Assembly: GCA_965200245.1 (NCBI GenBank)
Contig: CBDATS010000004.1
Location: 640,001-704,000 of the forward strand
DNA length: 64,000 nt
Origin: a bacterium
GTDB lineage: Bacteria; UBA8248
Direction of reading: 5' to 3'
Shown: in pieces, positions 1 through 43,484 of the stretch
How the letters are laid out: every line of letters starts with the position of its first letter
Numbering within the stretch: position 1 is the first letter of the stretch
Made by a program: the position numbers and the translations under genes
The notes under the pieces: generated by a model
Told to the model about the DNA's origin: nothing
The model's input: the letters and a program-made list of their open reading frames with translations, nothing else
Databases searched by the model: none

Positions 1-799
1 CGACGCCAGAGAACTTGAGAAGGCGCGCGTCGTTTTCTGGGTGGGCGAAGTGCTCGCCCCGAGTCTGGAGCGACCGCTCGCAATTCTGCCGAAACGGGCG
101 AAGGTCGTCGCATTGGCGCAGACGAAGGGTTTGGAACTGCTGAAGATCAGGAAAGGCGGCTTGTGGGAAGAGCATGACGATCATCACGACGATCATCACG
201 ACGATCACAAGCATTCCAAGGCCAGGGATGATCATCACGACGAGAAGGCCGGTGGTCATCACGCACATGAGCATCGCGGCAGTATTGATGTGCACATCTG
301 GCTCGATCCCATGAACGCCAGCAAATGGGTGGACGCCATCGCGCACGAACTTGGAGAAGTGGACTCCAGGAACAGGAAGAAATACGAGTCGAACGCGCAA
401 AATCTGAAAGCCCGCATCAACAATCTGCACAAAGAACTCGCGCGCTCATTTGCGCCAGTGCGAGGCGCACCCTACATCGTCTTTCACGATGCGTATCAAT
501 ACATGGAGAAACGTTACGGGCTGAACGCCATCGGATCGGTGACCCTCTCACCCGAGAAAAAGCCGGGTGCGGCGCGTCTGGTAGCGATACAGAGGAAGAT
601 CAGGAATACGAAGTCGCTCTGTGTGTTCACCGAGCCGCAGTTTCAGCCCAGATTGGTGAATGTCATCCTGGAGGGAACGGACGCCGGAACCGGCGTGCTC
701 GACCCCTTGGGAGCGGATATACCCGCAGGTGAGGACGCATATTTTACTCTCATGCGAAACATGGCGAAATCGCTCAAGGGGTGTCTTGCTCGCAAATAA
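1..799 (+). CDS. znuA: Zinc ABC transporter substrate-binding protein (5' end outside window)
   Basis: His/Asp-rich loop, HIWLDP, VFHDAYQY, CVFTEPQF and LDPLG motifs. Confidence 0.93.
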   Translation, partial: DARELEKARVVFWVGEVLAPSLERPLAILPKRAKVVALAQTKGLELLKIRKGGLWEEHDDHHDDHHDDHKHSKARDDHHDEKAGGHHAHEHRGSIDVHIWLDPMNASKWVDAIAHELGEVDSRNRKKYESNAQNLKARINNLHKELARSFAPVRGAPYIVFHDAYQYMEKRYGLNAIGSVTLSPEKKPGAARLVAIQRKIRNTKSLCVFTEPQFQPRLVNVILEGTDAGTGVLDPLGADIPAGEDAYFTLMRNMAKSLKGCLARK

Positions 800-860
800 T
801 CCGTGCGGCATCCCCCCGGGGATATGAACAAGCCTGCCCTGTTCCCCAGCATATCTTCGG

Positions 861-893
861 GAAGCCGCCCGCTTTCTTGTTGCGGCGGCTTTC
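861..893 (+). terminator. Putative intrinsic terminator after znuA
   Basis: GAAGCCGCC...GGCGGCTTTC hairpin; composition becomes AT-richer just after it. Confidence 0.45.
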
Positions 894-894
894 A

Positions 895-1378
895 ATGGCC
901 CCTATACGTTCCATAGTTTTCAGGGAAGTTTTTGATGAATATGTACATCCATGGGAAAATCTGAAAATGACAAAAAAGTTTGATTCTTGGGATGAATTCC
1001 TGGATTGGGCGGAAAGTACCTCGCCCACTTTGGAACTGAACGAATTCAGGTACGGTCCAACGGAACCGAAATTAACTCCTGATCTTTCAGATGAATTTAA
1101 AGAAGATTGGAAAGAACTTGATGATGATACCAAAAAGAAAGTCATAAAAATGATTAGAACGATGATATTCAGTGGAGAACCACTCACGGATTCCATATAT
1201 GATGATCATGAAATAACGGTTGGAGCACAAAGGGGATATCGAGCTGCCCGTGTTCCGAGCGAGGGCGATGATCTTTCTCCTAATCCATAAAATTGGCACA
1301 AAGAAATCAGGGTTGGCATGTCCATCAAACCACGACGAATTGTTTTCGCCAGATACAGGAAAGACGGGAATTATATGA
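895..1378 (+). pseudogene. Family-A peptide fused to a frameshifted YafQ/RelE-like toxin
   Basis: HPWENLKMTKKFDSWDEFLD then SDEFKEDWK...GEPLTDSIYDDH...GDDL; after a +1 shift at ~1275 it continues LLIHKI...SNHDELF; paralog of 32715..33194. Confidence 0.75.
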
Positions 1379-1400
1379 TTAACTTGGCAATGTATATTTG

Positions 1401-1408
1401 GATAAATA
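1401..1408 (+). promoter_or_regulatory. Possible T4-like late promoter (NATAAATA)
   Basis: GATAAATA about 30 nt upstream of ATG 1438; a short motif in AT-rich DNA, could be chance. Confidence 0.3.
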
Positions 1409-1437
1409 AAGTTTGATATATAAAGGGAAAATCAGAC

Positions 1438-2469
1438 ATGCCAGGCCATCGAAAAATGTTGGAAATGTTTCTGGAAGCCGCAGACGGGTTTCCGATTATC
1501 CGCAATGGCGAAAACGCAAGCGATTATACCCGCAGAATTGGCAGACTGTATAAAGGCTGGATACTTGAATCGGGGATACACATCAACCCCGTCAGAATGG
1601 AGAATGCCGTGGATATAATCGAGGGCGAAGCCTTTGATCGATGGCACGACCACATCGCGACACCGAGCACGGCCGTGTGGGACATGGAGTTTCCAAAATA
1701 AGCCATCTTGCGCCAGACGATGAAACAACCCACGGGCCCCGTCACCAAGGCGACGCCTACTCCGCCCATGAATCCCCTCAATATGAAATCCTCCATCAGT
1801 TGCCTCCGTGATGGCGATGGGCTTCCTCGGGTTCGACAGGGAATATCTCCCCCTCCGGTCCGTGAACATGGTCGTGGCTGTGGGTGTAAATCGCCAGACT
1901 CTCCGCCTGTTTTCCGAACAAGGCGAGGTATTCGGGATGTTTGCTCACGGCTGTGGGATGTCCCGAGCAACAAAGGAGATGAACACAAGTATTACGATCT
2001 GGATGATGAAGAGAGATGCAAAAACAAAGGCGAACTGGGGAAATGGGTAAAGGAAGAGTCTGCATTTGTGGCCGATATAGATGACCCGCATGGCGATGGC
2101 GAGCGGCTGAAAGAAGACCTGATATACTTTGGTAAGAGATATGACCAAGACGGAGTACTGTTCCTGCCCCTGTATGACGATTATGTTTTTGAAATAGACC
2201 CAGAAACCAGCGAAATGGAAAAGAAAGGCAGGAAAAGCAAGGTCCTAGAAGTGATGCAGAAACTCACGGGCGGATATACCAGGATAAGGAACAGGTTCTT
2301 CCAATTCAGTGAAGTGCGCGAAATCCCGATGCTCAGCTGGTTTGATACTATATCGGAAAGGATATCATATCAAAGACATTTCAACAGCGGAAAGACATTG
2401 GAAGAAATGCAAAAAAAAGAATCCTGGCTATTATTGGGGAAGATGGTGTCTGGAACCATACGAAGATGA
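1438..2469 (+). pseudogene. Phage-like (T4-type) hypothetical gene interrupted by a host znuCB fragment
   Basis: N-part 1438-~1651; C-part ~1973-2469 has VKEESAFV...FGKRYDQDGVLF...GYTRIRNRFF, resembling a conserved myovirus protein (from recall). Confidence 0.5.
1652..1972 (-). pseudogene. Fragment spanning znuC 3' end and znuB 5' end
   Basis: CCSGHPTAVSKHPEYLALFG...YTHSHDH (ZnuC C-term), stop overlapping MEDFILRGFMGGVGVALVTGPVGCFIVWRKMAYFGNSMSHTAVLGVAM (ZnuB N-term); both truncated. Confidence 0.88.
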
Positions 2470-27783: not shown

Positions 27784-29112
27784 TCATACGCGCGTTTCGC
27801 GCAAATCCAGAAATCTTTTCGCCTTGAACGTCGTTCTTTCAAAAGAGCCCGCGGGCAGAACTTCTACCTCGGGCGTCACGAGCAGTTTCACCCCGAGCCT
27901 TTTGCGCAACGCATGGCACATGCCCGGGTTCGCCTCTCCCTCGGCAGCCTCGGCCACGACGACGCAGCGGTCCCGTCCCGTCGACCTGTCCGGGTGCAAT
28001 TCCACGCGAAACTCGTTGCTGAGGCCCGGAAAACTCCGCACGACTTCCTCCACCTGGATGGGATAGAACTTCGCTCCCTTGTAGATGACGAGATCGTCAT
28101 GCCGCCCGAGAATCCCCCCCGGCGAACGCAGGTGCGTTCTGCCGCAAGCACTGGGGGAACTGTCCACGCACGCGAAATCGTTCGTCCAGTAGCGCAGCAT
28201 GGGCGTGGCCTCGCGCGTGAGATGCGTGATGACAAGAATGCCCACCTCGCCCTCGGGCACAGGCTATTTCGTCTCGGGATCCACGATCTCGACGATATGG
28301 TGATCCTCCGCCCAGATGAGTCCCGACTTCGCTGCCGACTCACTCGCGAAAGTCGGTCCGATCTCGCCAAGCCCGTAATAGTCATAGGCATCCAGGCCGA
28401 GAGCGGCTTCGATTCGAGCGCGTGTGGATGGGTTCTGCGTTCCCGCCTCCCCGCCGAAAGAGCCGACTTTCAAAGGGATATCCGCGGGGTCCACGCCGCT
28501 TTCGGTGAGTTTCTCCCCGATGTAGAGGCCGTAGCTCGGCGTACTCAGCAACACCGTGGAACCGACAGTGGTGAGGTAGTGAATCTGCCGTTCCGTCATG
28601 GCGGCGCCAATAGGTATTACGAAACACCCCATCTTCTGCGTGGCGTAGTGCACACTCATTCCGGCAACCCACAGCCCATAGCTGAAAGCGTTCTGGACAA
28701 CGTCGTTCGGTCTCACCCCGAAGCTCCACATCGTGCGCGCCGTGAAATCCGCGATGTTCTCGATGTCGTTCCTGCTCCAGATGGTGCTCACGGGAACCCC
28801 TGTGGTACCCGTGGAAGGGTGGAGTTCTCCCCACGTCTGCGGCGGAGCCACGGTGTATCGTCCGAAGGGAGGATGCTCCCGCTGCTCGTCTCTCAGTTCC
28901 TGTTTGGTAACGAATGGAATTTTCCGCAGATCGTCCAGGGTACGAACGGAATCAGGCCCAATACCCGCCTCATGCAGACGTTCACGGTAGAATCCGGATT
29001 CCAGGTAACAGCGGCGGACCTGCCACTTGAGGCGTTCGAGTTGTAGGGAGGCGAGTTCGTCACGCGCCATGCATTCGATTCGCTCATCCCAAAAATCGCC
29101 GTTTCGCACCAT
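27784..29112 (-). pseudogene. paaK: Phenylacetate-CoA ligase family, interrupted by an in-frame TAG at 28264-28266
   Basis: STGTTG, YGLGE, then DPETK*PVPEGEVG in one frame, then GRHDDL. Confidence 0.82.
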
Positions 29113-29427
29113 GACAGCGAAAACTCCTGTAGAGGAAAAGCGAGCGAATCTGTCGCACACTCCCGAAACCACATTCAGTTCGTAGACGATAATCCCGGAA
29201 AGAAATCCCAAGAAAGATAGTACAACGATTGATGATGCGCAAGTAAGGGGTTTTCCGGGTTCAGTTGATAGGTGTCCAGTGCTGCGTTAAACATCACTTA
29301 CGCTACGACTTGAAGTTATGTCAAGACAGTTGGTGTGACTGACTGTCTTGAAGATCACGCCTGCTCAGTACTGTAATTTGCAAATGTTGCTCATAATCTT
29401 CTTCAAATCCTAGAGTTCTTCATTCCC

Positions 29428-29676
29428 TTGGATCCCAAAGGTATTTTTCTGCGTGTTGGTAAGGCTGTTGATGCTGGTCAAGAAGGAGGCTACCAGTATG
29501 AATCTCCGGGTGCAGACCTCGTCGTTCGCATCGTTGAAAGATACCTCGCAGAACACCGGGAGTTGTTACAACAGGATGAGCAGTGTCGCCAGACACTTAT
29601 AGAGATTCTGGATGTATTTGTGAGCTGGCCCTCCGCCAGGAGACTTGTGTACCGACTGGATGATATCTTTCGGTGA
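29428..29676 (+). pseudogene. C-terminal remnant of a large protein, possibly a STAND/NACHT ATPase
   Basis: YQYESPGADLVVRIVERYLAEHR...LDVFVSWPSARRLVYRLDDIFR resembles C-termini of such proteins (from recall); no N-terminal part. Confidence 0.4.
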
Positions 29677-30008
29677 GCCATATACTGGGCGTGGGCGATT
29701 GTCTCCTGGAAACCGTAGCTATGCACTTGGCAAAGTTTCATTCCAGTAAATTATGAATATTCGTGCTCGCATATATGAAATTGCAGTATATTACTTTGCA
29801 ACTCCTCCTCGGTTCGATCCGTCCTGAGGGGATTTTTCACTTCATCGATCATCAGACGATGATGCAAATAACCTAGCAATAACTCCTCCTCCATGAATAT
29901 AGCGGAAACTACAGGGGAATTACTAAGCTAGTGCAGGCTCATCGAACTTCTGTCATGACCTTATCCAACTTGGCATGGAATAGGGTGAACATTTATTCAT
30001 GACAACTA

Positions 30009-30248
30009 CTATGATCTTACATCCCCGGAGGAGTTGATCCTCGTATATGGCCATTCGGGCCTCGTGCGCCTTTTCTTAATGGAAGAATGGAAGATTCTGG
30101 CCTGGTCTACGATCGCAAGAACCAGATCCGGGTCCATTGGATCAGGGTCGTCTACGGCATATTGATAGTACAGTTCTCTCTTTCTCTCGGTGTCCAGTTT
30201 GCTTATCGAATATTCAAACATTTTCCTGATGTTATACTTTTTAGTCAT
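30009..30248 (-). CDS. Mini-protein family C
   Basis: KLDTERKRELYYQYAVDDPDPMDPDLVLAIVDQARIFH; two paralogs upstream. Confidence 0.65.
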   Translation of the reverse strand: MTKKYNIRKMFEYSISKLDTERKRELYYQYAVDDPDPMDPDLVLAIVDQARIFHSSIKKRRTRPEWPYTRINSSGDVRS

Positions 30249-30312
30249 TTTTAAATACCCCGCAGAACGCAGGAAAGAGACCGTGTAGAACGGCACGGTG
30301 GGCAAAGAGAAT

Positions 30313-30543
30313 TCATCGCCGGTAATCCCGGGGCCAGTCGCGTCCTGTCTTTTCGGCTTCGAGCCTGTCCCTTTCGAGCATCCCAAAGAACGTATCCCCG
30401 AAAGGAGAAAGTCCCCCCTCCGAACAGAATTCGACGTATCTTTTCCGGTATTTCTCGTCACTCCAGCCGGCGAGAATGCGTCTTTGCGAATTGTCGAGTC
30501 TCATTCCCCGATACGATTTTTGCTTCGACTTTTCAAGTGCCAT
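30313..30543 (-). CDS. Small hypothetical protein
   Basis: Co-oriented 76-aa ORF inside the array. Confidence 0.5.
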   Translation of the reverse strand: MALEKSKQKSYRGMRLDNSQRRILAGWSDEKYRKRYVEFCSEGGLSPFGDTFFGMLERDRLEAEKTGRDWPRDYRR

Positions 30544-30669
30544 CTATCTCATCCCTTCGTCTTTGTGCCCTTCCTGCCCGGTTCGGAGGTATGGGGCCTC
30601 GTTTTTTCACGAATGCAGTCAGAATACATATCCTGCCGCCTCTCACGACAAAGAAAAGACGGGCGGCAT

Positions 30670-30862
30670 TCACCCGAAAATACCCGATATCCCTTCTGAG
30701 GACCTAGCATTTCCAGGGTTCTTATGGAATTGTCTCGATTCATCGATAATGGCTCGAACCAGGTCGGCATCTAATCGATCAGAACCGGAGGTGGCCGCAT
30801 CATAGTAGGACTTTCTTATTTTTTCCGTACTCAAACCCCTGATTTCAATGTCGTACCTTATT
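30670..30862 (-). pseudogene. Mini-protein family C, start lost
   Basis: GLSTEKIRKSYYDAATSGSDRLDADLVRAIIDESRQFH; no in-frame start. Confidence 0.55.
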
Positions 30863-31045
30863 TCTTATATCGGCCATTTCGGTTCTTCTCGGCATGGAAG
30901 GGTCCTGATTCGTCTATAATCAATCGAACCAAATCGGCATCTACCGGACCGGGTTCAGAAATGGAGTGGCTATAAAACGATTTTCCTTTCTTTTCGGTGT
31001 CCAGATATTCAATAAAAACCTTGTACTTCTTCTCGAAGGTGGCAT
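30858..31045 (-). pseudogene. Mini-protein family C, frameshifted
   Basis: EYLDTEKKR in one frame, FYSHSISEPGPVDADLVRLIIDESGPFH in another. Confidence 0.55.
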
Positions 31046-31046
31046 T

Positions 31047-31208
31047 TTAGTTTCCATGAATCATCCGGGATCTTTCCACTTCATCCCTTGCAATAACCAT
31101 GAAATCATCGTCCCTGTATTCAGCGACTGCCTTCAAGTACAGTTCCCTGTCCTTTTCAGTTTTCAGGAAATCGGCAGTATCGTATCTATAGGTTTTTGTT
31201 CTGGCCAT
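31047..31208 (-). CDS. Mini-protein family B (HI1420-like antitoxin N-terminal domain, no HTH)
   Basis: MARTKTYRYDTADFLKTEKDRELYLKAVAEYRDDDFMVIARDEVERSR; GGAG RBS; below the ORF-track size cutoff. Confidence 0.7.
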   Translation of the reverse strand: MARTKTYRYDTADFLKTEKDRELYLKAVAEYRDDDFMVIARDEVERSRMIHGN

Positions 31209-31354
31209 TGTTTATCTCTCCAGCTGCATCTTCGGTCCATTCCCATACATTAGCCGCGATCTTTCGATATCTTCCAGTGCTTCATCGACCAGTTTCCGAT
31301 TACCGAACTTTTCAACTGCTTCCAGGTAAAGTCTCCTGTCCTCTTCATCCTCCA
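31097..31354. repeat. 258-bp direct repeat, copy 1
   Basis: Identical by eye to 33677..33934 (offset 2580). Confidence 0.92.
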
Positions 31355-31397
31355 GGATTTCAGCGGGATCGTATGGTCTGACTTTCGTTCTGGCCAT
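31212..31397 (-). CDS. Mini-protein family B (HI1420-like antitoxin N-terminal domain, no HTH)
   Basis: PYDPAEILEDEEDRRLYLEAVEKFGNRKLVDEALEDIERSR; AAGGAG RBS. Confidence 0.75.
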   Translation of the reverse strand: MARTKVRPYDPAEILEDEEDRRLYLEAVEKFGNRKLVDEALEDIERSRLMYGNGPKMQLER

Positions 31398-31426
31398 CGT
31401 CTATGTGCTCCTTTCGTCCAGATCCC

Positions 31427-31609
31427 CTACCATCCCAGTCTATCCCTGATTTCATCCATAATTTCATCCTTGTCCAGTTCCGGGGCCGTCTTATCCAGAA
31501 AATCTTCAAATGACTTGCATCTGTTCATCTTCAGCCCCTCCCACGGATACTTTCCGGTTTCGCGCTTCACTCTTTCATAAAGCAGGGCTCTCTCTTCTCG
31601 TTCGTTCAT
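31427..31609 (-). CDS. Mini-protein family A
   Basis: LLYERVKRETGKYPWEGLKMNRCKSFEDFLDK; paralogs at 33188 and 34012. Confidence 0.75.
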   Translation of the reverse strand: MNEREERALLYERVKRETGKYPWEGLKMNRCKSFEDFLDKTAPELDKDEIMDEIRDRLGW

Positions 31610-31627
31610 GACAATTCCTGTCCGCAT

Positions 31628-31837
31628 TCAATAGCCGAAAAACTCGGGTTCCGGGATGGGATCCCTGAAATGTTCACGCGATTTTCTTACATCTTCCCTA
31701 GCGATTTCCCATGCTCTTTTACTGCTATCCAGAAATTCCTCAAGGAACTGTCTTCTCGTGCGCTCATCATCGAGATGCTCATGCACGATGAATTCCTTGC
31801 CGCGCAGAACCCGGTTTCTTCTTTCTTGATGGTTCAC
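31628..31837 (-). CDS. Divergent family-B-like mini-protein
   Basis: EFIVHEHLDDERTRRQFLEEF...AREDVRKSR aligns with family B. Confidence 0.55.
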   Translation of the reverse strand: MNHQERRNRVLRGKEFIVHEHLDDERTRRQFLEEFLDSSKRAWEIAREDVRKSREHFRDPIPEPEFFGY

Positions 31838-32040
31838 AGATAATCCCCACGCATTTCATGGTAAAGGGATGGTGCAGGTGGAATTATTTCAAGGCCTCCG
31901 CGACTTTTCCTGAATTTCAGTTCGGCGTTCAAAATGCGTTCAAACTCTTTCTGCTCAGTCTCCAGGGATTTTCCACATGCGGCTATGTCATGTTCCAGGC
32001 ACTGCGCAATCCCGCTATCTCTGAAAAACAGAATCGTCAT
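31834..32040 (-). CDS. HicB-like antitoxin domain
   Basis: AQCLEHDIAACGKSLE...IPPAP pattern; overlaps both neighbours by 4 bp. Confidence 0.6.
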   Translation of the reverse strand: MTILFFRDSGIAQCLEHDIAACGKSLETEQKEFERILNAELKFRKSRGGLEIIPPAPSLYHEMRGDYL

Positions 32041-32666
32041 ACCCCTATTGCAATCTTCGGTTCTATGGGAATTATATTGTAATCCCTCGATTCAAAGGGG
32101 TTCTCGTGATTCGGTTTCCTGGGCCTCCGCATCGGCTTGGGCCGTCCGTTCTTGTAGTACTCTTTCCGGAAGGCGTCGAAATGGCCCGGTTCGTGGGCAT
32201 CCTCCACTTCCTTCATCCGCATGTTGAGTTCCATCGTCCAGGCCATGACATGGTTGGGCACCTGTTCGCCGGGTTCCAGGAAGTGGTTGTATGGGTCATC
32301 CGGATTATAGGACTTGACTTCATATATCCCCCAGGCAGTTCCGCCCCAATCCGCTTTCCTGTATACGTCGAGTGCCTCGATCTGGCGTTGCATCCGCAGG
32401 GTGCTGGCCATCTCCGGAACTATACGAACCATGCCCCTGTAGTTCATTCCGCCCTCGTGCCTGTGGTAAATCACCAAGAGGCCCTTCATGAGGAAGTCGC
32501 GCGATTCCAGATCTTCCTCGCCTTCATAGATGTATGTGTCTTCTATGGATTCTTCCATGAGGAATCGAAGCTTGAATTCCCCTCTTTTCCACTTTTCAAA
32601 TTTTTCGGCTTCCGGCCACGATTCGGGTACATAGAACGCTTGGTCATCGTATATGTGGATCTTCAC
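32037..32666 (-). CDS. Hypothetical protein (209 aa)
   Basis: AGGAG RBS, translationally coupled to the HicB-like gene; no motif recognised. Confidence 0.7.
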   Translation of the reverse strand: MKIHIYDDQAFYVPESWPEAEKFEKWKRGEFKLRFLMEESIEDTYIYEGEEDLESRDFLMKGLLVIYHRHEGGMNYRGMVRIVPEMASTLRMQRQIEALDVYRKADWGGTAWGIYEVKSYNPDDPYNHFLEPGEQVPNHVMAWTMELNMRMKEVEDAHEPGHFDAFRKEYYKNGRPKPMRRPRKPNHENPFESRDYNIIPIEPKIAIGV

Positions 32667-32714
32667 GGCAGTCTGCTCCTTTTCTCGAGTTCGCGGAGTC
32701 TATCGTCCGCGATA

Positions 32715-33194
32715 TCACCTCGATGATTCCTGCCATGTGATGAAGTCGGCGTAAACTCCCACTGCTTCATTCTGGTTTTTCTTCCACGCCTTTCCTTTTT
32801 TCTTCTTTGTCCGGTTTCTTCGCGTGGTCGTTTTTCCCTGTTGCGCCTTCGCAAAGAGGGTAGCATGGTCCGACAGACGATGAAGGAACAATGTATTTCC
32901 TTCGATTTCATACATAAGAAGAAGATTATCGCCCGGAACCGGAACATGGGCGTCGTAGAGGCCCCTCTGGTTTCCGCGTGTTATTGTGTGGTTCTTGTAG
33001 ATGGAATCCGTGAGCGGCTTTCCGGTAAACACTATAATGTCAATCATTGTCGAAACTTCTTCTTCTACATCGTCATTAACCTTTTTCAGATCTTCCTCGA
33101 ATTCATCCGAATAGATGCGAGTCAGTTTTTCATTCGGAGGGACTTTTTCCTTCCCTTCCTGGCCCCTTCCCCTTTCAAACAGATATTCTAACAT
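32715..33194 (-). CDS. YafQ/RelE-family mRNA interferase
   Basis: YSDEFEEDLKK, YKNH, YDAHV, GDNLLLMY, LHRLSDHATLF. Confidence 0.8.
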   Translation of the reverse strand: MLEYLFERGRGQEGKEKVPPNEKLTRIYSDEFEEDLKKVNDDVEEEVSTMIDIIVFTGKPLTDSIYKNHTITRGNQRGLYDAHVPVPGDNLLLMYEIEGNTLFLHRLSDHATLFAKAQQGKTTTRRNRTKKKKGKAWKKNQNEAVGVYADFITWQESSR

Positions 33195-33370
33195 CCCAAT
33201 CTATCCAGAGCTTTTCTCAGAATCTTGTCCTTGTCCAGATCCGGGAACACTTTATCCATAAAATCATCCCGCGACTTGGCCCTGTTCATCTTCAGCCCCT
33301 CCCACGGATACTTTCCAGTTTCACGCTTTATTCTTTCGTAAAGCAGGTCCCGTTCTTCCCTTTCGTTCAT
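33188..33370 (-). CDS. Mini-protein family A, overlapping the YafQ-like start (candidate antitoxin)
   Basis: YPWEGLKMNRAKSRDDFMDK; AAGGA RBS; 7-bp overlap. Confidence 0.75.
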   Translation of the reverse strand: MNEREERDLLYERIKRETGKYPWEGLKMNRAKSRDDFMDKVFPDLDKDKILRKALDRLGC

Positions 33371-33448
33371 GGCTGTTTCCTTTTCTCTATTTAGGCCACC
33401 AGATCCCGGTAGGTAATCCTTCCTTCCCGCCTTATCTTGGATTTAAGG

Positions 33449-33625
33449 TCATTTTCTGAATTCACTGTAATCAGTGTGATGTGCCTTTTCCATTTCATCC
33501 CATGGCAGGGGGTTTGAATACTTCAGATTCTTCCATGGATGATCGTGGATTTTCGCTCTTCCGACTTTCTTATAGAGGAGTAGCGATGTCCTCGGATCCT
33601 TGCGTTCAAGGTTCTTTCTGTTCAT
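33449..33625 (-). CDS. Divergent family-A-like mini-protein
   Basis: LLLYKKV...HPWKNLKYSNPLPWDEM. Confidence 0.55.
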   Translation of the reverse strand: MNRKNLERKDPRTSLLLYKKVGRAKIHDHPWKNLKYSNPLPWDEMEKAHHTDYSEFRK

Positions 33626-33788
33626 GGTGTCCGCCATCTATTATTCGCGATCTTTCCACCGCGTCCCTTGCTTCGGCCATGAAATCATCGTCCCTGTATT
33701 CAGCGACTGCCTTCAAGTACAGTTCCCTGTCCTTTTCAGTTTTCAGGAAATCGGCAGTATCGTATCTATAGGTTTTTGTTCTGGCCAT
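33606..33788 (-). CDS. Mini-protein family B
   Basis: Paralog of 31047..31208. Confidence 0.72.
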   Translation of the reverse strand: MARTKTYRYDTADFLKTEKDRELYLKAVAEYRDDDFMAEARDAVERSRIIDGGHHEQKEP

Positions 33789-33934
33789 TGTTTATCTCTC
33801 CAGCTGCATCTTCGGTCCATTCCCATACATTAGCCGCGATCTTTCGATATCTTCCAGTGCTTCATCGACCAGTTTCCGATTACCGAACTTTTCAACTGCT
33901 TCCAGGTAAAGTCTCCTGTCCTCTTCATCCTCCA
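33677..33934. repeat. 258-bp direct repeat, copy 2
   Basis: Identical by eye to 31097..31354. Confidence 0.92.
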
Positions 33935-33977
33935 AAAATTCGGCAGAATCGTATGGTTTGACTTTTACTTCAGGCAT
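33792..33977 (-). CDS. Mini-protein family B
   Basis: Paralog of 31212..31397. Confidence 0.75.
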   Translation of the reverse strand: MPEVKVKPYDSAEFLEDEEDRRLYLEAVEKFGNRKLVDEALEDIERSRLMYGNGPKMQLER

Positions 33978-34011
33978 TTCTGGCCCCTTCCCCTTTCAAT
34001 CAGATACCATG

Positions 34012-34200
34012 TCATCGGAGTCTATCCCATATTTCATCTATAATTTCGTCTACATCCAAACGGGGATGTCTTTTCTTTGCTTTATCCAGATATTCTTCAA
34101 ACGACATGGCCCTGCCGAACTTCTGGCCCTCCCACGGATACTTTCCGGTTTCGCGCTTCACCCTTTCATGGATCAGGTCTCTTTTTTCTCGTTCATGCAT
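34012..34200 (-). CDS. Mini-protein family A
   Basis: HERVKRETGKYPWEGQKFGRAMSFEEYLDK. Confidence 0.72.
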   Translation of the reverse strand: MHEREKRDLIHERVKRETGKYPWEGQKFGRAMSFEEYLDKAKKRHPRLDVDEIIDEIWDRLR

Positions 34201-34744
34201 GATAGTAATCGCCTTGTATCTTGTGGATTTCGGTGGGACTTTCCTCGCGCATTGATTTCGCCCGGGTGTTTACCGGAAGGGCCATGCAGGCATCGCTGTC
34301 TTGAGAAGAAACCCGATCAATGTCCGCCCTCCGACCATAGTCCCTCAAGTACCTTCGCATCATTCCTTCCAGATCCCGCAGCCGCTGCGCTGTCCGGTCG
34401 TATAATGCGTTCCCTGCCGTCAGGCTCTTCTCCCGCAGGGTCTGCCGGAAACCGCGCCACTGGCGGGCGGACATCTCTTCGGGGTCTGCGTGCTCTACGG
34501 TCATGCGGGGTTGCCGGCCCTTGCTGCACAGGAGATTGCGGATATCCTTCGTCAGGTTTTTTTCTATCCCGAGTTCCGTGCGATTCTTTCTCTCGTCCAG
34601 CCACTCGACCAGTTCGGATGCTTCCCCGTCATCGTGATGAAAGTGATTCGCGGCGTTTGCGAGGGAGAACAGAATCAGGTGTCTTTCATAATCGGTCAGC
34701 ACGACTCCCTCCTGATGAAACCCCGAAAAGTCGGGGCGATACAC
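34193..34744 (-). CDS. Hypothetical protein
   Basis: 183-aa ORF overlapping the first array gene; start uncertain. Confidence 0.5.
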   Translation of the reverse strand: MYRPDFSGFHQEGVVLTDYERHLILFSLANAANHFHHDDGEASELVEWLDERKNRTELGIEKNLTKDIRNLLCSKGRQPRMTVEHADPEEMSARQWRGFRQTLREKSLTAGNALYDRTAQRLRDLEGMMRRYLRDYGRRADIDRVSSQDSDACMALPVNTRAKSMREESPTEIHKIQGDYYHA

Positions 34745-35184
34745 GTTGCGTTGCAGGGAACCTACGGCACCCGTGCGTCAGATTCGGACGTATGGGCCAA
34801 GAAAATCACAAAAAAATCATCCTGATGTTTCTGACAGGATGGATTTGAAGGAGGTCACGGGATCGCCCGATTGGATTGTTCAGGAAAAATCCCGTGTCTT
34901 GAGGGATACGGTTGACCATGCAGACCGGGGTTCGCCTGCTCTTCACAAGACGCAAGAGACCATCGACAGGGGACGTTTCGGTTGGTCCGCAGTCCGAATC
35001 AGCGAATATATGGCAGTGCATCACCAGCGGGCCATGCGAGGCCGAGTGCAGGGTGGCCGGGTTGCATGGTCGCCTGAGGCATTGAATCGCAGGGACTCCG
35101 GGTGCGCCGGGGGGCCATGGATGAATTGCTGGATGTTGACCAGGAATGGATGGGTGACCACCGCGGGCAGGAGCAGAACCCCTA

Positions 35185-35389
35185 TTACTCGTATTCGTTG
35201 TTCTTCTCTCCCTGGGTGATCCGGTGCCTGATGTATACGTGCTCGTTGCCGTCGCAGTGATTGTTCATGGAACAGATACAACGCTTCATCGACGACCTGT
35301 TCGTCGGCTACATCGATGGGGATAACCGGTTTCCCGAGCCTTCTCAGGCAATGATCCCTGAATTCTTCCCTCGTGGCTGGTATAGCCAT
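35185..35389 (-). pseudogene. T4-like phage neck protein gp13 N-terminal remnant
   Basis: AGGAGA RBS; MAIPATREEFRDHCLRRLGKPVIPIDVADEQV-VDEALYLF, frameshift, then HCDGNEHVYIRHRITQGEKNNEY*. Confidence 0.78.
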
Positions 35390-35414
35390 CCCGATCTCCT
35401 GAACAAGAGGAACG

Positions 35415-35732
35415 ATGTTATTATTCAGGAAGAAAAACATGGACATCAGGGACAGGGCCGACAGCATCACGGAGATGTCGATAGATATCGGCGAGACCTG
35501 TCGACTTCCTCCCGGAACCGACGCCGGCCAGATCGTCGGGATTGCCTCGAACATCGCCACGAAGTGCGCAGGGGACATGATACAGTTCCTGGGCACCGAC
35601 GCGAGAGAGACGGCCAGGACGATTCGCGAGGAGAACGACAGGATGGCCAGACTCAACGCAGGCATCGATCCCGGGTTCGCGGTACGGATAGACGAACTGC
35701 ACGACGGGATCGAGTATTTCCTCGAGGAGTAG
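35415..35732 (+). CDS. Hypothetical protein
   Basis: ORF followed by a CCCCTCTAGGGG hairpin. Confidence 0.5.
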   Translation: MLLFRKKNMDIRDRADSITEMSIDIGETCRLPPGTDAGQIVGIASNIATKCAGDMIQFLGTDARETARTIREENDRMARLNAGIDPGFAVRIDELHDGIEYFLEE

Positions 35733-36062
35733 CCCCTCTAGGGGGTTTCGCGAAATGCATCTTATGTGCCGGGAATTAAAGCATGGCAAGTTACAAGGCA
35801 GACATGATCAGTCAACCTGACCACGGGCCGATGCATTTTCAGGGAATAGGTTTCCGGCCAGATATCATTCCCTTGAAATGGGCATTATCTTCTTGAATCT
35901 GCGATAAAATTTCATGTGCTTTCCTGAACTCTGAATTCATTTCCTTTCTGATGTTCCTGAGTTGTGAATTTATGTCTTAAATATTTTTGTCAACACGATG
36001 AATCTCTGCGTTACTGGCTGACGCAGCAAGATCGGTAACGAGGGCATGCACGAGACTGCAAA

Positions 36063-36692: not shown

Positions 36693-36879
36693 GATAGAAA
36701 TGGAAGCCAATCTATTCGCCGCGGAATTGCTGATGCCCGCTGTACTTATCAATCAGGAACTTGAGAGCAACGTCTTTGATATCGATGAAGAGGCAGCCAT
36801 CGACGCGTTGGCAAGGCGCTTCAAGGTGAGCCAGTCAGCCATGCCTTTCCGGCTTGGAAACCTCTTGACCTGGAATTGA
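36643..36879 (+). pseudogene. ImmA/IrrE metallopeptidase C-terminal fragment
   Basis: EMEANLFAAELLMP...LARRFKVSQSAM; HExxH part missing. Confidence 0.78.
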
Positions 36880-36893
36880 TCCGAGTACCAGTT

Positions 36894-38300
36894 ATGGGGT
36901 TTGTCTTTTACGATACAGAGACGACCGGAACGAATACGTCTTTCGATCAAATTCTTCAGTTCGCTGCCATCAAGACCGATTATGAACTTAATGAACTGGA
37001 ACGATTCGAGATTCGTTGCCGTCTATTGCCCGATGTTGTCCCCTCGCCTGGCGCAATTCTGATTACAGGAGTTGGTCCTTCCCGATTCACGGACTCTGGG
37101 TTGCCTGGTCATTACGAGATGGTCCGCGCCATCAAGGCCAAGCTTGACGAATGGACACCCGCAGTCTTTCTTGGCCACAATTCACTGTCATTTGATGAAC
37201 ACTTGCTGCGGCAGGCGTTCTACAAGACGCTTCATGCACCGTATCTGACCAATACCAACAGCAATTGTCGGACTGACAGCCTGCGCATTGTCCAGTGCAT
37301 GGCTTTATACGCGCCGGGGATAGTGAACGTACCTATTGACGATAATTGGCAGTCGACCTATAAGCTCGATCGGTTGGCTCGTGCCAATGGCTTCAATCAC
37401 AGCACTGCGCATGATGCGATGGGTGATGCCGAGAAAACGGTTCATCTTTGCCGGTTGCTGGCCGAGCGCGCTGACGGTTACTGGTCGGGCTTTGTCCGGT
37501 TCGCTCAAAAATCGGCAGTTCTGGACTTCGTGCAGGAGGAGGAGTTCTTTTGCCTCACAGACGCCTATTTCGGGAAAACCTATACCTGGATGGTTTGCCA
37601 AATCGGTGAAAATCCAGACTATGCAGCCGAGCAACTGGTTTTTAACCTCGCCATCGATCCAGAAGAGTTGACTTCTCTTGATGACGATGCCCTGGCTGTC
37701 CGTCTTATGGAGCGACCCAAACCGGTGCGAGCTCTTCGCGCCAATGCTTCCCCGGCGTTACTGGCCTACGAAGATATCCCGTCACATCTACGCGCAGCCA
37801 CTCCCGGGGAAAATGTGCTCAGAGGACGTGCGTCCCTGATCAGGGGCGACGGGCACTTTGCACGACGATTGGTGAATTCTTTCCTGTCGACTCGCCAGGA
37901 ACGTACGCCATCCGTTTACGTCGAAAAGCAGATCTACGATTCATTTGCCAGCTGTGCAGATCAGGAGCTTATGGAACGTTTTCACACGATGGACTGGAAG
38001 GATCGGCCCAGGCTGCTTGAATCTCTTTCGGATCCACGAGCAAGAATTCTCGGAGAGAGACTGCTTCACATTGAAGCTCCCGCGGTTCTTTCTGGCGATG
38101 TGCGCAAGAACCTTGACATCGCTGCTGCGAGGCGCCTTATGGGAACAGACGGTTCAGCGCCATGGCTTACCTTGCCGGGAGCCCTCCTGGACACACGCGA
38201 TTGGCTTGTGGGTGCTTCTGGCGCCGCCGCTGTATTGCTTCGTGAACTAGAGGCTTATCTTGTCGAACGGTCCAATGAGGCCAGAACATTGATTGCCTAA
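36894..38300 (+). CDS. Exonuclease I (SbcB)-like DEDDh exonuclease
   Basis: FYDTETTG, QFAAI, GHNSLSFD, AHDAMGD, EKQIYDSF. Confidence 0.88.
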   Translation: MGFVFYDTETTGTNTSFDQILQFAAIKTDYELNELERFEIRCRLLPDVVPSPGAILITGVGPSRFTDSGLPGHYEMVRAIKAKLDEWTPAVFLGHNSLSFDEHLLRQAFYKTLHAPYLTNTNSNCRTDSLRIVQCMALYAPGIVNVPIDDNWQSTYKLDRLARANGFNHSTAHDAMGDAEKTVHLCRLLAERADGYWSGFVRFAQKSAVLDFVQEEEFFCLTDAYFGKTYTWMVCQIGENPDYAAEQLVFNLAIDPEELTSLDDDALAVRLMERPKPVRALRANASPALLAYEDIPSHLRAATPGENVLRGRASLIRGDGHFARRLVNSFLSTRQERTPSVYVEKQIYDSFASCADQELMERFHTMDWKDRPRLLESLSDPRARILGERLLHIEAPAVLSGDVRKNLDIAAARRLMGTDGSAPWLTLPGALLDTRDWLVGASGAAAVLLRELEAYLVERSNEARTLIA

Positions 38301-38419
38301 CAGGACGCACTTATTCAGAAGCACGATTCTTTCTCGTTCCTCGGTCAATTTCCAGTCAAGAACAAGCATTTGGCGAACCGAAATATCATGGTGACCGACT
38401 AGCCATTGATGGAACGCAT

Positions 38420-39103
38420 GTGCAGGCTACTGCCAATACGCAAATTGCCCGGACAAAAAGACTTGAAAACCATACGGCCTTGCCTTATATTCGTTCCCTG
38501 AAAGGGATGAATATGCCTGTCACAGCCGATTTGACGATTCGGGAAACCGCTGCCCTCGCGGGAGTATCCCGGACAACGATCGAAAAAGCCCTGGAAGCCC
38601 GTATCCTGAAGGTTCTCACCGGACCGGCCCGTCTTCGTGGTGGCGCGATGCGCTATCTCCCGGTCCGGGCCGTGGTCTATTTCCATGCCCTGAAGGCAGC
38701 CAACCTTACGGACCTTCCTTTACGTCACAAACGGGCAATCTGGACCGATATGGTCCGGCTTGAGCCCATGCAGCTTGATACAATCGAATTCACTCCCGGC
38801 ACCATGCTCGATCTCGAGCGTCTCGCGGCGGATTCCCTGCGGAATGCCGAGCGATACCGGATAGCCCGTGATCGATACATCACATCAGACGGGGACATCC
38901 TCGGCGGCACACCGGTCATCGCCGGAACCCGGTTGACCGTTTACGCGATTCTCGGGCGGCTGCAGGATGGAGACAGTATCGATGATCTTCTGGAAGACTA
39001 CCGCGAGATTCCGCGCGAAGCGTTCGGGGCCGCCGAGATCTACGCCAAATCCCATCCTCTCAGGGGACGCCCGTCCGGCAGACCCTGGCGAAACACAGCC
39101 TGA
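38420..39103 (+). CDS. DUF433-domain antitoxin with N-terminal HTH
   Basis: ETAALAGVS; ILGGTPVIAGTRLTV...DLLEDY; true start may be downstream. Confidence 0.82.
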   Translation: MQATANTQIARTKRLENHTALPYIRSLKGMNMPVTADLTIRETAALAGVSRTTIEKALEARILKVLTGPARLRGGAMRYLPVRAVVYFHALKAANLTDLPLRHKRAIWTDMVRLEPMQLDTIEFTPGTMLDLERLAADSLRNAERYRIARDRYITSDGDILGGTPVIAGTRLTVYAILGRLQDGDSIDDLLEDYREIPREAFGAAEIYAKSHPLRGRPSGRPWRNTA

Positions 39104-39120
39104 TTGACGGTTGCGGCAAG

Positions 39121-39446
39121 ATGATGCGGTTGTTTCTTGATGAGTGTCTGTCCTCAAAACTGCCCGGTCTCTAAACGCCGAGGGGATTCATGTTGCCCTG
39201 CATCCACGCGATTTCGGTGGGCTGGGTGCACCGGATCACCACGTATTGGCCAGATGCGTCGAGCAGGATATTGTACTCGTGACGGTCAATGCGCTCGATT
39301 TCCGAGCCCTCGTCGCCGCATGGGACGTGCATCCCGGCCTCGTCATCCTCCCGAGCGTGAGCCGGGAACGTTCGGAGTCACTGCTACGTGATGCGATCAC
39401 TTTCCTTTCAGGACACGGCGCCCCGATGGCTCTTTCGAGCGGATAG
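39121..39446 (+). pseudogene. DUF5615 PIN-like toxin, frameshifted
   Basis: MRLFLDECLS, shift at ~39160, then GLGAPDHHVL...LVTVNALDF...HPGLVIL. Confidence 0.8.
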
Positions 39447-39626
39447 CTAGAATTTATCAAAAATGATTTTGAGTGCTCCAATTGCCAAAGTGAAACTTCG
39501 AGAAGCAACGCGCCGCTCAAGTCTGGGAGCTCATTCTCGATCAGATCGTCACCTGTGAAGGCCCAAGGGACATTTCAGCGCTGGAAGAAATCAGGTATCG
39601 CGTTAACAGAGCTAGCCTGCCATAGA

Positions 39627-39756
39627 ATGACCATTATATCAGCCATTAATAGTTTTGATGACTATTATTCTATCCTTTTTTCTTGACAGTCCTGAATTTA
39701 TTTGCCAGAAATGACTATATTATCAGGCTCTATATAGCCTAATGACCATTATTCCA
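39627..39756 (+). promoter_or_regulatory. hipBA-type promoter with four repeated operator-like motifs
   Basis: ATGAC(C/T)AT... at 39627, 39658, 39711, 39742; TTGACA at 39683. Confidence 0.55.
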
Positions 39757-39780
39757 GTCTCTTCGTGTCAGGTGTGAAAA

Positions 39781-40113
39781 ATGGCAAAGCAACGAACCTA
39801 CTCCAAATACGCCCGGGAAGCCACTGTGCTTATGGGGGAACAGATCAAACTCGGACGCAAACAACGCCAGTGGTCAGAAAAAAATCTGGCGGAGCGGGCC
39901 GGTATCTCCAGAGCCACGCTGCAAAAAATTGAGAAAGGAGAAATGGGCTGCTCCGTTGGCCTGGTCTTTGAGGTCGCAACGCTTGTTGGTATCAAGCTGT
40001 TTGAATCCGACAATATGCGGCTCTCCAAACATATCGAGCACACGAGAGACAAAATTGCGCTGCTGCCGCAACGTATGAAAGTAACCGAAAAGACGGTACG
40101 GGATGATTTCTAA
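39781..40113 (+). CDS. XRE-family HTH antitoxin (HipB-like)
   Basis: LAERAGISRATLQKIEKG; overlaps the hipA start. Confidence 0.88.
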   Translation: MAKQRTYSKYAREATVLMGEQIKLGRKQRQWSEKNLAERAGISRATLQKIEKGEMGCSVGLVFEVATLVGIKLFESDNMRLSKHIEHTRDKIALLPQRMKVTEKTVRDDF

Positions 40114-41362
40114 CAGCGACAGGGAAGCCTTCGTCTGGATTTGGCTGCCGGACGAAACCACGCCAGTGGTCGCCGGACGGCTGGAAGCGGACAACGGTAA
40201 TGTTCTGTTCAACTACGGCAAGAGCTACCTGGAGCGCATTAACGATCATCCCCCTGCGATTCCGATTTACGAACCTGAGGTGCCGTTGCAGGCCGGAGTT
40301 TTACCGCTGCCGGAAGGATTAACCATGCCCGGCAGTATTCGGGACGCTGCCCCCGATGCGTGGGGTCGGCGTGTGATTATCAACAAGATGCTGGGACTCA
40401 AAGGTGCTGACACGGATACAGCCGAGCTGGGCGAACTGACCTGCTTGCTGGAGTCCGGTTCCGACCGGATTGGTGCACTCGATTTTCAGCGTTCACCGAC
40501 CGAGTATGTGCCGCGTGCCGCCAGCAACGTCAGCATGGAAGAACTGATTGAATCCGCTGAACGTGTCGAGAAAGGCGTCCTGCTCACGCCTGAACTGGAT
40601 CAGGCTTTGTTCCACGGCAGTTCCATCGGCGGTGCGCGTCCAAAAGCCTTGATCCAGGATCAGGGCAAAAAATACGTTGCCAAGTTTTCATCCAGCACCG
40701 ACCTCTACAACGTGATCAAAGCTGAATTCATCGCCATGCGGCTGGCACATCTTGCCGGACTGAATGCAGCGTCAGTAAAACTGGTCAAGGCCGCTAACAA
40801 AGATGTACTGCTGATCGAACGCTTTGACCGCCAGCCAAAAGACGGGAGTTGGTCACGCCGGGCCATGGTCTCGGCACTGACATTGCTCGGGCTGGATGAG
40901 ATGATGGCGCGTTACGCCAGCTATGAAACGCTTGCAGAAACCATTCGCCACCGTTTCACAGATCCGAAGGATACGTTGAAAGAACTGTTTTCACGGCTGG
41001 CCTTCAACATTCTGTGCGGCAATACCGATGACCATGCCCGTAACCATGCCGCCTTCTGGAACGGCAAGGAACCGACTTTGACACCAGCCTACGATATCTG
41101 CCCACAGGGGCGCACAGACAACGAGGCGTCTCAGGCGATGCTGATATCAGGCAACAACAATATGAGCCAACTCAAATCCTGCCTCGAAGCGGCGAACCAT
41201 TTCCTGCTTTCGGAAGACGATGCCCGCGCTATCTTCGGCCACTTGACCGAATCCATCGAAAAGCAATGGGACTCAGTATGCGAGGAAGCCGAATTGAGCG
41301 AAGTGGACAGGAAATTTTTCTGGGGAAGGCAGTTTCTAAACCCTTATTCGACCGAGCAATAG
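40103..41362 (+). CDS. hipA: HipA-family kinase toxin
   Basis: PDAWG, SSIGGARPK, ERFDR, NTDDHARNH, PAYDI. Confidence 0.92.
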   Translation: MISNSDREAFVWIWLPDETTPVVAGRLEADNGNVLFNYGKSYLERINDHPPAIPIYEPEVPLQAGVLPLPEGLTMPGSIRDAAPDAWGRRVIINKMLGLKGADTDTAELGELTCLLESGSDRIGALDFQRSPTEYVPRAASNVSMEELIESAERVEKGVLLTPELDQALFHGSSIGGARPKALIQDQGKKYVAKFSSSTDLYNVIKAEFIAMRLAHLAGLNAASVKLVKAANKDVLLIERFDRQPKDGSWSRRAMVSALTLLGLDEMMARYASYETLAETIRHRFTDPKDTLKELFSRLAFNILCGNTDDHARNHAAFWNGKEPTLTPAYDICPQGRTDNEASQAMLISGNNNMSQLKSCLEAANHFLLSEDDARAIFGHLTESIEKQWDSVCEEAELSEVDRKFFWGRQFLNPYSTEQ

Positions 41363-41458
41363 GTACCTGCTTTGAAAGGGCCCATTGATCCAAACGACAT
41401 TAAGGAAATTTCCGGGAAAAACCGTGACTCGGCCCTGAAGGTCGTAAAAATCCCAAAA

Positions 41459-43336: not shown

Positions 43337-43484
43337 GAACCTGCGCTTTTGTGAAGACATGGGGCGTAGTTCGCTGCACAAGCTCTTAATGTAGCAGAAA
43401 GCGACTCATGCTCATAGCCCTGTACCCTTAGGCTCGTTCACCAGTCGCTCTTGTTTTGGTATAAACCAGAGATATGATCTTTTC

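Follow-up and report, generated by a model that had tools for sequence, protein, structure and literature searches.

The 64,000-nt stretch of contig CBDATS010000004.1 analyzed here (the window, to which coordinates refer unless another contig is named) belongs to genome G000 and includes an array of small genes on contig C4 of that genome that is largely made up of antitoxin-type genes without toxins. The array comprises 18 small, tightly packed reading frames that all lie on the minus strand between positions 30009 and 34744 (about 4.7 kb), with intergenic distances of -32 to +78 nt. Its GC content is 0.47-0.48, compared to about 0.60-0.62 in the surrounding 4-28 kb. A canonical start codon and an open frame are present in 16 of the 18 genes, the exceptions being C3 and the Gp49 stub. 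The preliminary description of this DNA, made from the sequence alone, had correctly recognized a packed run of co-oriented small genes. It had also credited many of them with clear ribosome-binding sites, which holds for about half of the genes, where short GGAG, AGGA or GGGG stretches lie upstream, but not for the rest. The array DNA was confirmed by a run of another study (X1), which covers 30 of 30 bins of the region 29000-36000 at 99% identity or more and includes a 22-kb contig that leads from the housekeeping flank into the array, up to position 31126. Because the whole array region is covered at this identity, the array is not an assembly artefact. In the following, a congener is a genome of the same genus, and a mini is an antitoxin-type protein of 50-80 amino acids (aa) that lacks a helix-turn-helix (HTH) domain. 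The features are:

34193..34744, minus strand: U183, the chimeric head gene of the array, 183 codons, no match in family searches
34012..34200, minus strand: A3, 62 aa, an orphan copy of family A, followed by B1b in place of a toxin
33792..33977, minus strand: B1b, 61 aa, a putative HTH-less mini-HI1420-type antitoxin (PF21716 positions 2-46, E 0.0073)
33606..33788, minus strand: B2b, 60 aa, a putative HTH-less mini-HI1420-type antitoxin, 89% identical to B2a
33449..33637, minus strand: A', 62 aa, a diverged and possibly decaying A-like gene with a 32-nt overlap with the end of B2b
33188..33370, minus strand: A2, 60 aa, the predicted antitoxin partner of TOX, whose start it overlaps by 7 nt
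32715..33194, minus strand: TOX, 159 aa, a toxin of the YafQ/RelE family of mRNA interferases, YafQ domain at residues 28-114
32037..32666, minus strand: U209, 209 aa, no family, with a 71%-identical paralog on contig C5
31834..32040, minus strand: H68, 68 aa, no family, with a 4-nt overlap with each neighbour
31628..31837, minus strand: B3, 69 aa, a distant mini of the B/C family
31427..31627, minus strand: A1, 60-66 aa, an orphan copy of family A
31212..31397, minus strand: B1a, 61 aa, a putative HTH-less mini-HI1420-type antitoxin with TIGR02684 and phrog_4268 matches
31047..31208, minus strand: B2a, 53 aa, a putative HTH-less mini-HI1420-type antitoxin (PF21716 positions 2-44)
30858..31037, minus strand: C3, a C-type mini without an ATG, GTG or TTG start, in frame with B2a behind a single TAA
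30670..30834, minus strand: C2, 54 aa, a C-type mini with a TTG start
30533..30673, minus strand: Gp49', the C-terminal stub of a Gp49/HigB-type toxin, N-terminal part missing
30313..30543, minus strand: X76, the intact partner gene of a Gp49-type toxin, from an unnamed non-HTH family
30009..30251, minus strand: C1, a C-type mini of 79 aa from an ATG at 30248
781..1378, plus strand: a decayed module of A and a YafQ-like toxin, with A-like and toxin parts in one frame and the toxin part frameshifted near its end
34360..35111, no strand assigned: a 752-nt repeat, 100% identical to C5:396866-397617, spanning the 5' part of U183 and the region upstream

The array thus holds one complete toxin-antitoxin (TA) pair, one toxin stub with its partner, about 12 antitoxin-type genes without a toxin, and three genes outside these categories (U183, U209 and H68).

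The complete pair consists of A2 and TOX. TOX matches the Pfam family YafQ_toxin (PF15738) with 35.1 bits against a cut-off of 30 (E 1.6e-8) and TIGR02385 with 29.4 bits against a cut-off of 27.9, and its histidines align with those of HP0892 and YafQ (PDB sequences), being kept at the YKNH, AH and DH positions relative to HP0892. We take these aligned histidines to be the catalytic residues. An intact YafQ-like toxin, as reported previously, is therefore present. The YafQ domain of TOX is extended by about 27 residues in front and by a basic, Lys/Arg-rich tail of 45 residues behind, and the first 12 or so codons of TOX are homologous to the non-coding spacer behind A3. The antitoxin gene comes first and the toxin gene second; this order is tabulated for PF_YafQ in the accessible part of the review PMC11980606.

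Family A has three clear copies (A1, A2 and A3), which are 58-73% identical (tblastn E 1e-16 to 1e-24). Of the four copies counted previously, A' is the doubtful one: it aligns at 30-32% identity, and its comparison to the three clear copies yields an hhalign E of 0.011 over 32 columns. Family A shows no ribbon-helix-helix (RHH) domain and no detectable likeness to DinJ or to any other known family in Pfam, NCBIfam, PHROG or Atlas. Profile comparison also rejected A as a toxin remnant and as a relative of B/C. A structural model of A2 with TOX residues 17-120, of the kind proposed along with the preliminary description, reached an ipSAE of 0.80, whereas the best of three controls scored 0.00. 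The runs share at least 87% of the contacts, and the predicted local distance difference test (pLDDT) of the partner is at least 84. Among complexes of solved structure, 58 of 80 attained this mark, as did 2 of 110 mismatched pairs, counts that are only roughly valid here because our own shallow alignments served as model input. The modelled interface includes, in the surroundings of the aligned histidines, toxin residues 67-74, 81 and 103-113. A2 is thus predicted to wrap around TOX, with the active-site face included. We take A to be a probable new antitoxin family that lacks a DNA-binding domain and is the partner of a YafQ-type toxin. A2 would neutralize the resident YafQ/RelE-type, ribosome-dependent mRNA interferase, and the pair would be translationally coupled. 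The idea that A is a decoy is not supported, as A2 occupies the cognate antitoxin position of TOX and the model supports binding.

The A genes also have a slot behind them in common. About 35 nt behind each A gene are shared, including a purine-rich stretch resembling a Shine-Dalgarno sequence, and are followed by TOX after A2 or by B1 after A1 and A3. Because the same flank precedes either TOX or B1, the genes B1 and B2 occupy the slot of the toxin. The pairing of an A-like gene with a toxin occurs a second time at 781-1378 on the plus strand, 30 kb away. The A profile matches there with E 5.6e-5, and the toxin segment is 52% identical to TOX over 73 aa (tblastn E 1e-17), with a frameshift near its end and an arginine at one of the catalytic histidine positions.

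Most of the remaining antitoxin-type genes resemble the N-terminal part of HI1420-type antitoxins. Family B has four clear copies, with B1a and B1b 90% identical, B2a and B2b 89% identical, and B1 versus B2 at 41-45%. B3, counted previously as a fifth copy, is a weak member (hhalign versus B E 1.1e-3; A6 profile E 1.2e-4). B1a matches positions 1-47 of 89 in TIGR02684 (E 7.5e-6), B matches positions 3-48 of 96 in phrog_4268 (E 1.2e-5), and four of the five B-type genes match PF21716 from position 2 to position 44-47 with sub-threshold E values of 0.007-0.04. The scores lie under the curated cut-offs of the HI1420-type profiles (26.1 bits versus 53.7 for TIGR02684; 14-17 versus 27 for PF21716). 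The C-terminal Xre-type HTH domain is absent from B: the proteins, 53-61 aa long, stop behind the helix with which this domain would begin, and profile positions 48-89 are unmatched. This agrees with the preliminary description, which had likened B to the N-terminal half of HI1420-type antidotes without their HTH. An AlphaFold2 (AF2) model of B2a, built with 21 relatives, is a two-helix hairpin (pLDDT 90) without a third helix. Of the similarity checks proposed earlier for these proteins, the profile comparison thus gave the TIGR02684 match, but searching the PDB by Foldseek with the B2a model returned nothing at E <= 0.001; its best matches were Rop-like hairpins with E > 6, a hairpin of 53 aa being uninformative in such a search. 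B3 and P0134, a protein of 155 aa from a 3.1-Mb contig, have in common the mini domain and a C-terminal P-x-P-E-x-E-F-F-G-aromatic ending, which suggests that this ending is a conserved additional motif.

Family C has the three copies that had been reported (C1, C2 and C3), the last lacking a canonical start. The alignment of B with C is in register, though weak (hhalign E 6e-4), and the only connection of C to the HI1420 family runs via minis that are linked to toxins in congeners. Two of these, G013 and G003, have a 113-aa toxin of the HI1419 type (TIGR02683 positions 3-94 of 95, E 4.4e-5; hhalign versus eight canonical toxins 81%, E 1.2e-5) and behind it, overlapping by 4 nt, an HTH-less mini of 66 aa. 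In G016 a 72-aa mini lies behind a whole toxin of 108 aa (locus L095). These toxin-linked minis match both C (hhalign 88%, E 2.9e-6) and B (87.6%, E 3.5e-6). For this reason B, B3 and C, listed previously as two of three separate families next to A, are one family of HTH-less mini-antitoxins, with family A standing apart; their natural partners in this lineage would thus be HI1419-type toxins. In two further congeners, G010 (L090 2395-2671) and G011 (L091 2445-2721), a 72-aa mini lies behind a gene for the toxin that is whole in G016, here cut to its first 20 or so codons, and the toxin stub runs on in another frame over the mini. As the mini is kept behind a stub in both, toxin loss that leaves an orphan mini is recurrent.

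In the array, all eight mini copies (four B, B3 and three C) lack an HI1419-type toxin, and no HI1419/Gp49-type toxin lies directly upstream of any B or C gene. The HI1419 toxin type of the congeners (A15 type) has no match in G000 at E <= 1, and the one intact PF05973 copy in G000 is paired with an X-family gene. No solved HI1419/HI1420 pair turned up in the PDB by sequence, whether the query was the B/C profile, the full-length HI1420 protein P0146 or an HI1419 toxin. Toxin binding by B and C, as proposed here, would follow by analogy and from the toxin-linked minis of the congeners.

Two observations concern the organization of mini domains. B2a and C3 lie in one frame (30858-31208), with no more than one TAA and three codons between them. 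This may reflect a nonsense mutation that recently split a B-C protein of two domains; alternatively, C3 may be translated by read-through or be a dead gene. Contigs from RNA libraries span the junction (30750-31109). About 39 kb before the window (L009 1495-2481, minus strand; C4 at about 600.7 kb), a 328-aa N6/N4 DNA methyltransferase (Pfam 3.7e-58) ends in a B-family domain of about 46 residues (A6 profile E 1.3e-13).

The stub Gp49' had been overlooked in the preliminary description, which stated that neither an HTH nor a HigB-type toxin is present; the first part of that statement holds, but the second is wrong in part. Gp49' matches positions 50-89 of 90 in PF05973 with 20.4 bits against a cut-off of 23.9 and is not full-length. 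With the intact toxin at G000:C4:614510-614632 it shares 61% identity, and stop codons lie upstream in the same frame. Genes that immediately follow Gp49 toxins at other places in G000 share 58-66% identity with its partner X76, and one of these toxins is intact (locus L016). At this locus (1257-1746, minus strand, equal to G000:C4:614284-614770) an intact Gp49-type toxin of 89 aa is followed by a 77-aa partner, in which no Pfam family and no HTH were found. The X family has at least four copies in G000 and may be another unnamed antitoxin family.

Three genes have no family. The first 128 codons of U183 are identical to a 233-aa gene on C5 (tblastn 100%, C5:396867-397250), and its last 55 codons are unique. 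U209 had no match in Pfam, PHROG, NCBIfam, PADLOC or Atlas. H68, which had been called HicB-like, did not bear this out: it matched no profile in Pfam (E <= 1), NCBIfam or PHROG (E <= 0.1), HicB profiles included, and has no homologue. A single-sequence AF2 model of H68 (pLDDT 56) is too poor for a fold search, and H68 as a toxin remnant was rejected (hhalign 0.1-0.2%). No array gene was matched by PADLOC, and Rfam gave no match in the array.

Selection on the array was assessed by the ratio of non-synonymous to synonymous substitution rates (dN/dS) between paralogs, calculated according to Nei-Gojobori, a crude method. The ratio is 0.24-0.28 among the A copies (A3 versus A1 and A2 included), 0.27-0.36 in recent B pairs (0.27 for B2a/B2b) and 0.44-0.45 for B1 versus B2; in family C, dS is saturated and the ratio of synonymous to non-synonymous differences per site (pS/pN) is 1.8- to 3.1-fold. 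The synonymous excess is significant in nine of ten pairs (p 6e-8 to 0.022), with p = 0.057 for B1a/B1b. The array paralogs are under purifying selection. Ratios near 1, named beforehand as evidence against a role for these genes, were not found, and the array is constrained rather than diversifying, as it had been called. Contigs from RNA libraries (X6 and X7, two metatranscriptomes) match the array region only at about 29866-30044, 30750-31109, 31938-32117 and 32276-32430, a weak hint of transcription.

The array bears traces of duplication and recombination. The unit A-B1-B2 is present twice, as recognized before, in the form of a 570-nt duplicate with 84% identity that rises to 96% in the inner 300 nt, and all three frames are kept. 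At the head of the array, 752 nt (34360-35111) are identical to a segment of C5 (blastn, 100%). In run X1 this segment is a separate contig of higher depth, with a loose end at 34360. The segment is likely to be a recombination joint. The region around it on C5 (about 396.5-405 kb) is a sister island that contains the first 128 aa of U183, the U209 paralog, a Gp49 stub and X copies, and it adjoins genes for an AAA-type ATPase and helicase-like proteins. An integron cassette array was considered for the locus in G000 and rejected: the gaps range from -32 to 78 nt, inverted repeats of at least 30 nt and Rfam matches are absent, and no tyrosine recombinase is nearby.

The array is flanked by genes for a thiolase, a sigma-54 activator, TatC, HipBA, a DUF433 protein and exonucleases. 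Further TA- and defence-type genes lie at 36876-43381, including an SbcB-like exonuclease (PADLOC RTasSbcB 1.2e-107), the DUF433 protein (38420-39103), HipB/HipA (39781-41362) and a 640-aa protein with a DEDDh exonuclease domain (41459-43381; PADLOC PDC-S48 1.5e-36). The window has no tRNA gene, and no integrase or tyrosine recombinase is encoded on the array's part of C4, tyrosine recombinases being found only on other contigs or far away. Three scans of viral contig collections, a search suggested at the outset, found no relative of A, B or related minis, and a tblastn search with B2a against 50,697 phage records found nothing at E <= 1. PHROG matches are confined to TA parts (B to phrog_4268, TOX to phrog_7251). 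Among plasmids, the best matches of B2a (25 records) are all annotated as addiction module antidote protein or regulator.

The distribution of the families indicates how rare the arrangement is. The A profile matched one of 51 genomes of the phylum, G000 itself, and the same holds for TOX. Word-index searches of 5.8 billion proteins returned only the A and B proteins of the window. The TOX alignment gave 114 pattern matches in the genome contig collection, none of which is a relative, and queries A1 and A9 found nothing in the metagenome contig collection. The B/C profile matched 188 of 1.84 billion representative proteins at E <= 1e-3. The best 150 of these include two proteins of the window itself; the length is 50-69 aa in 58, 70-79 aa in 24 and 90-104 aa in 20, and 36 carry the ERSR-type ending of B. 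Two entries, P0157 (a cluster member of 534 aa) and P0012 (a low-complexity repeat protein), were discarded as spurious. Several minis lie on contigs of 1.5-4.6 Mb, so that these are not fragments at contig ends; stand-alone minis therefore exist elsewhere.

Copy number sets the array further apart. G000 has six matches of the A6 profile plus the three C genes. Elsewhere in its phylum there are at most two per genome (50 genomes), with one or two copies in 16 of 22 congeners. In the sampled genomes the family is nearly always full-length. It occurs in 62 of 401 genomes of a second phylum and in 58 of 401 genomes of a third, each time with at most three per genome; in the third, 3 of 69 matches lie in frames below 80 aa. 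Such short frames are few in the 802 genomes of these two phyla, and one that was inspected (G125) is a truncated full-length antitoxin. Among 17 loci from the genome contig collection, 14 have full-length frames of at least 85 aa and ten carry the HI1419 motif directly upstream. At the congener locus L080, PF05973 is followed by PF21716.

It is probable, in our assessment, that the locus is a strain-specific, horizontally acquired chromosomal island in which an array was assembled from type II TA parts by recombination and segmental duplication, and that it serves as a bank of orphan antitoxins, possibly for anti-addiction. This interpretation builds on the anatomy of the array, its homologies, the toxin linkage of the minis in congeners and the purifying selection. 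The minis would bind toxins of the RelE superfamily stoichiometrically and without autoregulation. Their expression would be constitutive, as they would be passengers of a single operon whose start lies in the duplicated 752-nt segment or above it. Such a standing stock of orphan antitoxins could blunt the HI1419-type and YafQ-type toxins that would circulate in the genus on mobile TA modules, and the benefit to the host would lie in this anti-addiction function, an option that the preliminary description had also named. If they act at all, the surplus copies of A, the eight mini-HI1420 proteins and X76 would do so only in trans, on matching toxins that arrive on mobile elements.

A stronger version is conceivable, although we regard it as doubtful. 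The array would then be a selected antitoxin bank, the host counterpart of phage anti-TA genes, in which toxin-binding modules (the new A family and the HTH-less mini-HI1420 proteins) were freed of DNA-binding domains and toxins, amplified, and swapped as cassettes behind the conserved A flank. The host would thereby have standing immunity to mobile toxins of the RelE superfamily, be it against addiction or against attack.

Several observations weigh against reading the locus as a bank of orphan antitoxins. Part of the constraint may predate the assembly of the array. A promoter scan gave 4 sites versus 7.4 expected, and promoter and terminator signals together are not above chance. The contigs from RNA libraries could be DNA carry-over and cover small parts of the array. 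The model score of A2 with TOX may partly reflect memory of the toxin's binding face, because complexes of YafQ with its antitoxin have already been solved, and the complex model covers only this pair. For B and C, the role of the N-terminal half as the toxin-binding part depends on analogy and on the minis of the congeners, because no solved HI1419/HI1420 pair was found. Finally, the truncated Gp49 toxin, the startless C3, the diverged A', the frameshifted second copy of the A-toxin pair and the chimeric U183 would also fit debris of repeated TA insertion, recombination and decay at a hotspot, with small open reading frames of no present function.

This alternative of accumulated debris is unlikely in our estimation. 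Apart from the signs of decay just listed, it is favoured by the 752-nt identical repeat at U183, the shuffled pieces in the sister island on C5, the absence of the array from all 50 other genomes of the phylum, and the loss of toxins in congeners too. However, 16 of 18 frames have stayed open with a canonical start, the paralogs show dN/dS of 0.24-0.45 with a synonymous excess at p < 0.05 in nine of ten pairs, the recent A-B-B duplicate keeps its three frames, and the small RNA-library contigs on parts of the array point weakly in the same direction.

Two further alternatives retain a function for the array and are both considerably less plausible. Acquired interbacterial defence clusters work as orphan immunity, and the minis might accordingly be imagined to protect against nuclease toxins of the RelE fold (BECR) delivered by the polymorphic toxin systems of competitors. 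A co-oriented, diversified array of small paralogs without toxins would suit this role, as would a neighbourhood rich in defence and TA genes (HipBA, DUF433, exonucleases), but no delivery-system gene and no marker of Rhs, contact-dependent inhibition or type VI secretion occurs among the scanned open reading frames, which cover part of the window, and the nearest relatives of the minis reside in ordinary bicistronic TA modules. The other possibility is that A-B1-B2 is itself a working three-gene module, for example with A as antitoxin and B1 and B2 as adaptors or regulators of a partner encoded elsewhere, B not being an antitoxin here. In its favour, the unit is duplicated as a whole and B1-B2 replace the toxin behind the conserved A flank. 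The DNA methyltransferase of G000 with a B-like domain at its C-terminus also suggests a more general protein-binding module. However, B is a helical hairpin of 53 aa without a DNA-binding domain or enzymatic motif, and its relatives in congeners are plain toxin partners, so that we give this possibility little credence.

The origin proposed in the preliminary description, a phage-derived anti-TA cassette of amplified decoys directed against RelE/HigB/HicA defences of the host, is the least credible of all and very improbable: the families phrog_4268 (B) and phrog_7251 (TOX) also occur in phages, and phages are known to carry orphan antitoxin-like counter-defences according to the accessible part of bioRxiv 10.1101/2024.07.11.602962, but no relatives were found in viral contigs or, for B2a, in the phage records, no other array gene matches PHROG, the window has no tRNA and this part of C4 no integrase, and the flanks are housekeeping-type genes (thiolase, sigma-54 activator, TatC) and an exonuclease.

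Should the stronger version, a selected antitoxin bank, be true, the HTH-less minis would constitute a distinct, widespread and unnamed protein family. If the minis neutralize toxins, no smaller natural unit for toxin binding would exist in this very common class of antitoxins. They would then also show that one chromosome can keep many orphan antidotes in stock, a point of relevance to the anti-addiction role of chromosomal TA genes, which has long been debated. Family A would be a new class of partner for YafQ-type RNases. The locus also yields a panel of proteins of 50-80 aa, for which related species provide three natural toxin partners. Neither orphan antitoxins nor TA islands are new as such; for an amplified array of HTH-less minis and for a new YafQ partner family, no description was found in the accessible parts of the literature searched.

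The closest known system is HI1419/HI1420 (TIGR02683/TIGR02684; PF05973/dnstrm_HI1420 PF21716), in which the toxin gene comes first and which we take to be the pair COG3657/COG3636. A pairing of RelE (COG3657) with an HTH protein (COG3636) is listed in the accessible part of PMC2701414. B and C have the first 45 or so residues of this antitoxin, and related minis in three congeners follow a toxin of the HI1419 type with overlapping genes, but the minis of the array have neither the DNA-binding part nor an upstream toxin, and eight copies in one array contrast with one to three per genome elsewhere. TOX and A2 resemble DinJ-YafQ and HP0893-HP0892 in that the toxin lies above the YafQ cut-off with aligned histidines and the antitoxin gene is located upstream and overlaps, whereas A is not an RHH protein and TOX carries an N-terminal extension and a basic C-terminal tail of 45 aa. 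Three-component TA systems with a separate regulator, such as omega-epsilon-zeta and paaR-paaA-parE, likewise have an antitoxin without its own DNA-binding domain, but the array contains no recognizable regulator gene. Unlike the genes for phage anti-TA proteins (Dmd, TifA and similar), those of the array do not lie in a phage genome. The accessible parts of PMC7354431 and PMC7192599 discuss orphan antitoxins, and bioRxiv 10.1101/2024.07.11.602962, as far as accessible, deals with orphan antitoxin-like enzymes of phages. Like these orphan antitoxins, anti-addiction modules and phage antitoxin mimics, the array consists of antitoxin-like genes without a cognate toxin that could neutralize incoming toxins; unlike them, it is neither a single orphan nor phage-borne, but an amplified array of several families in the chromosome of the host.

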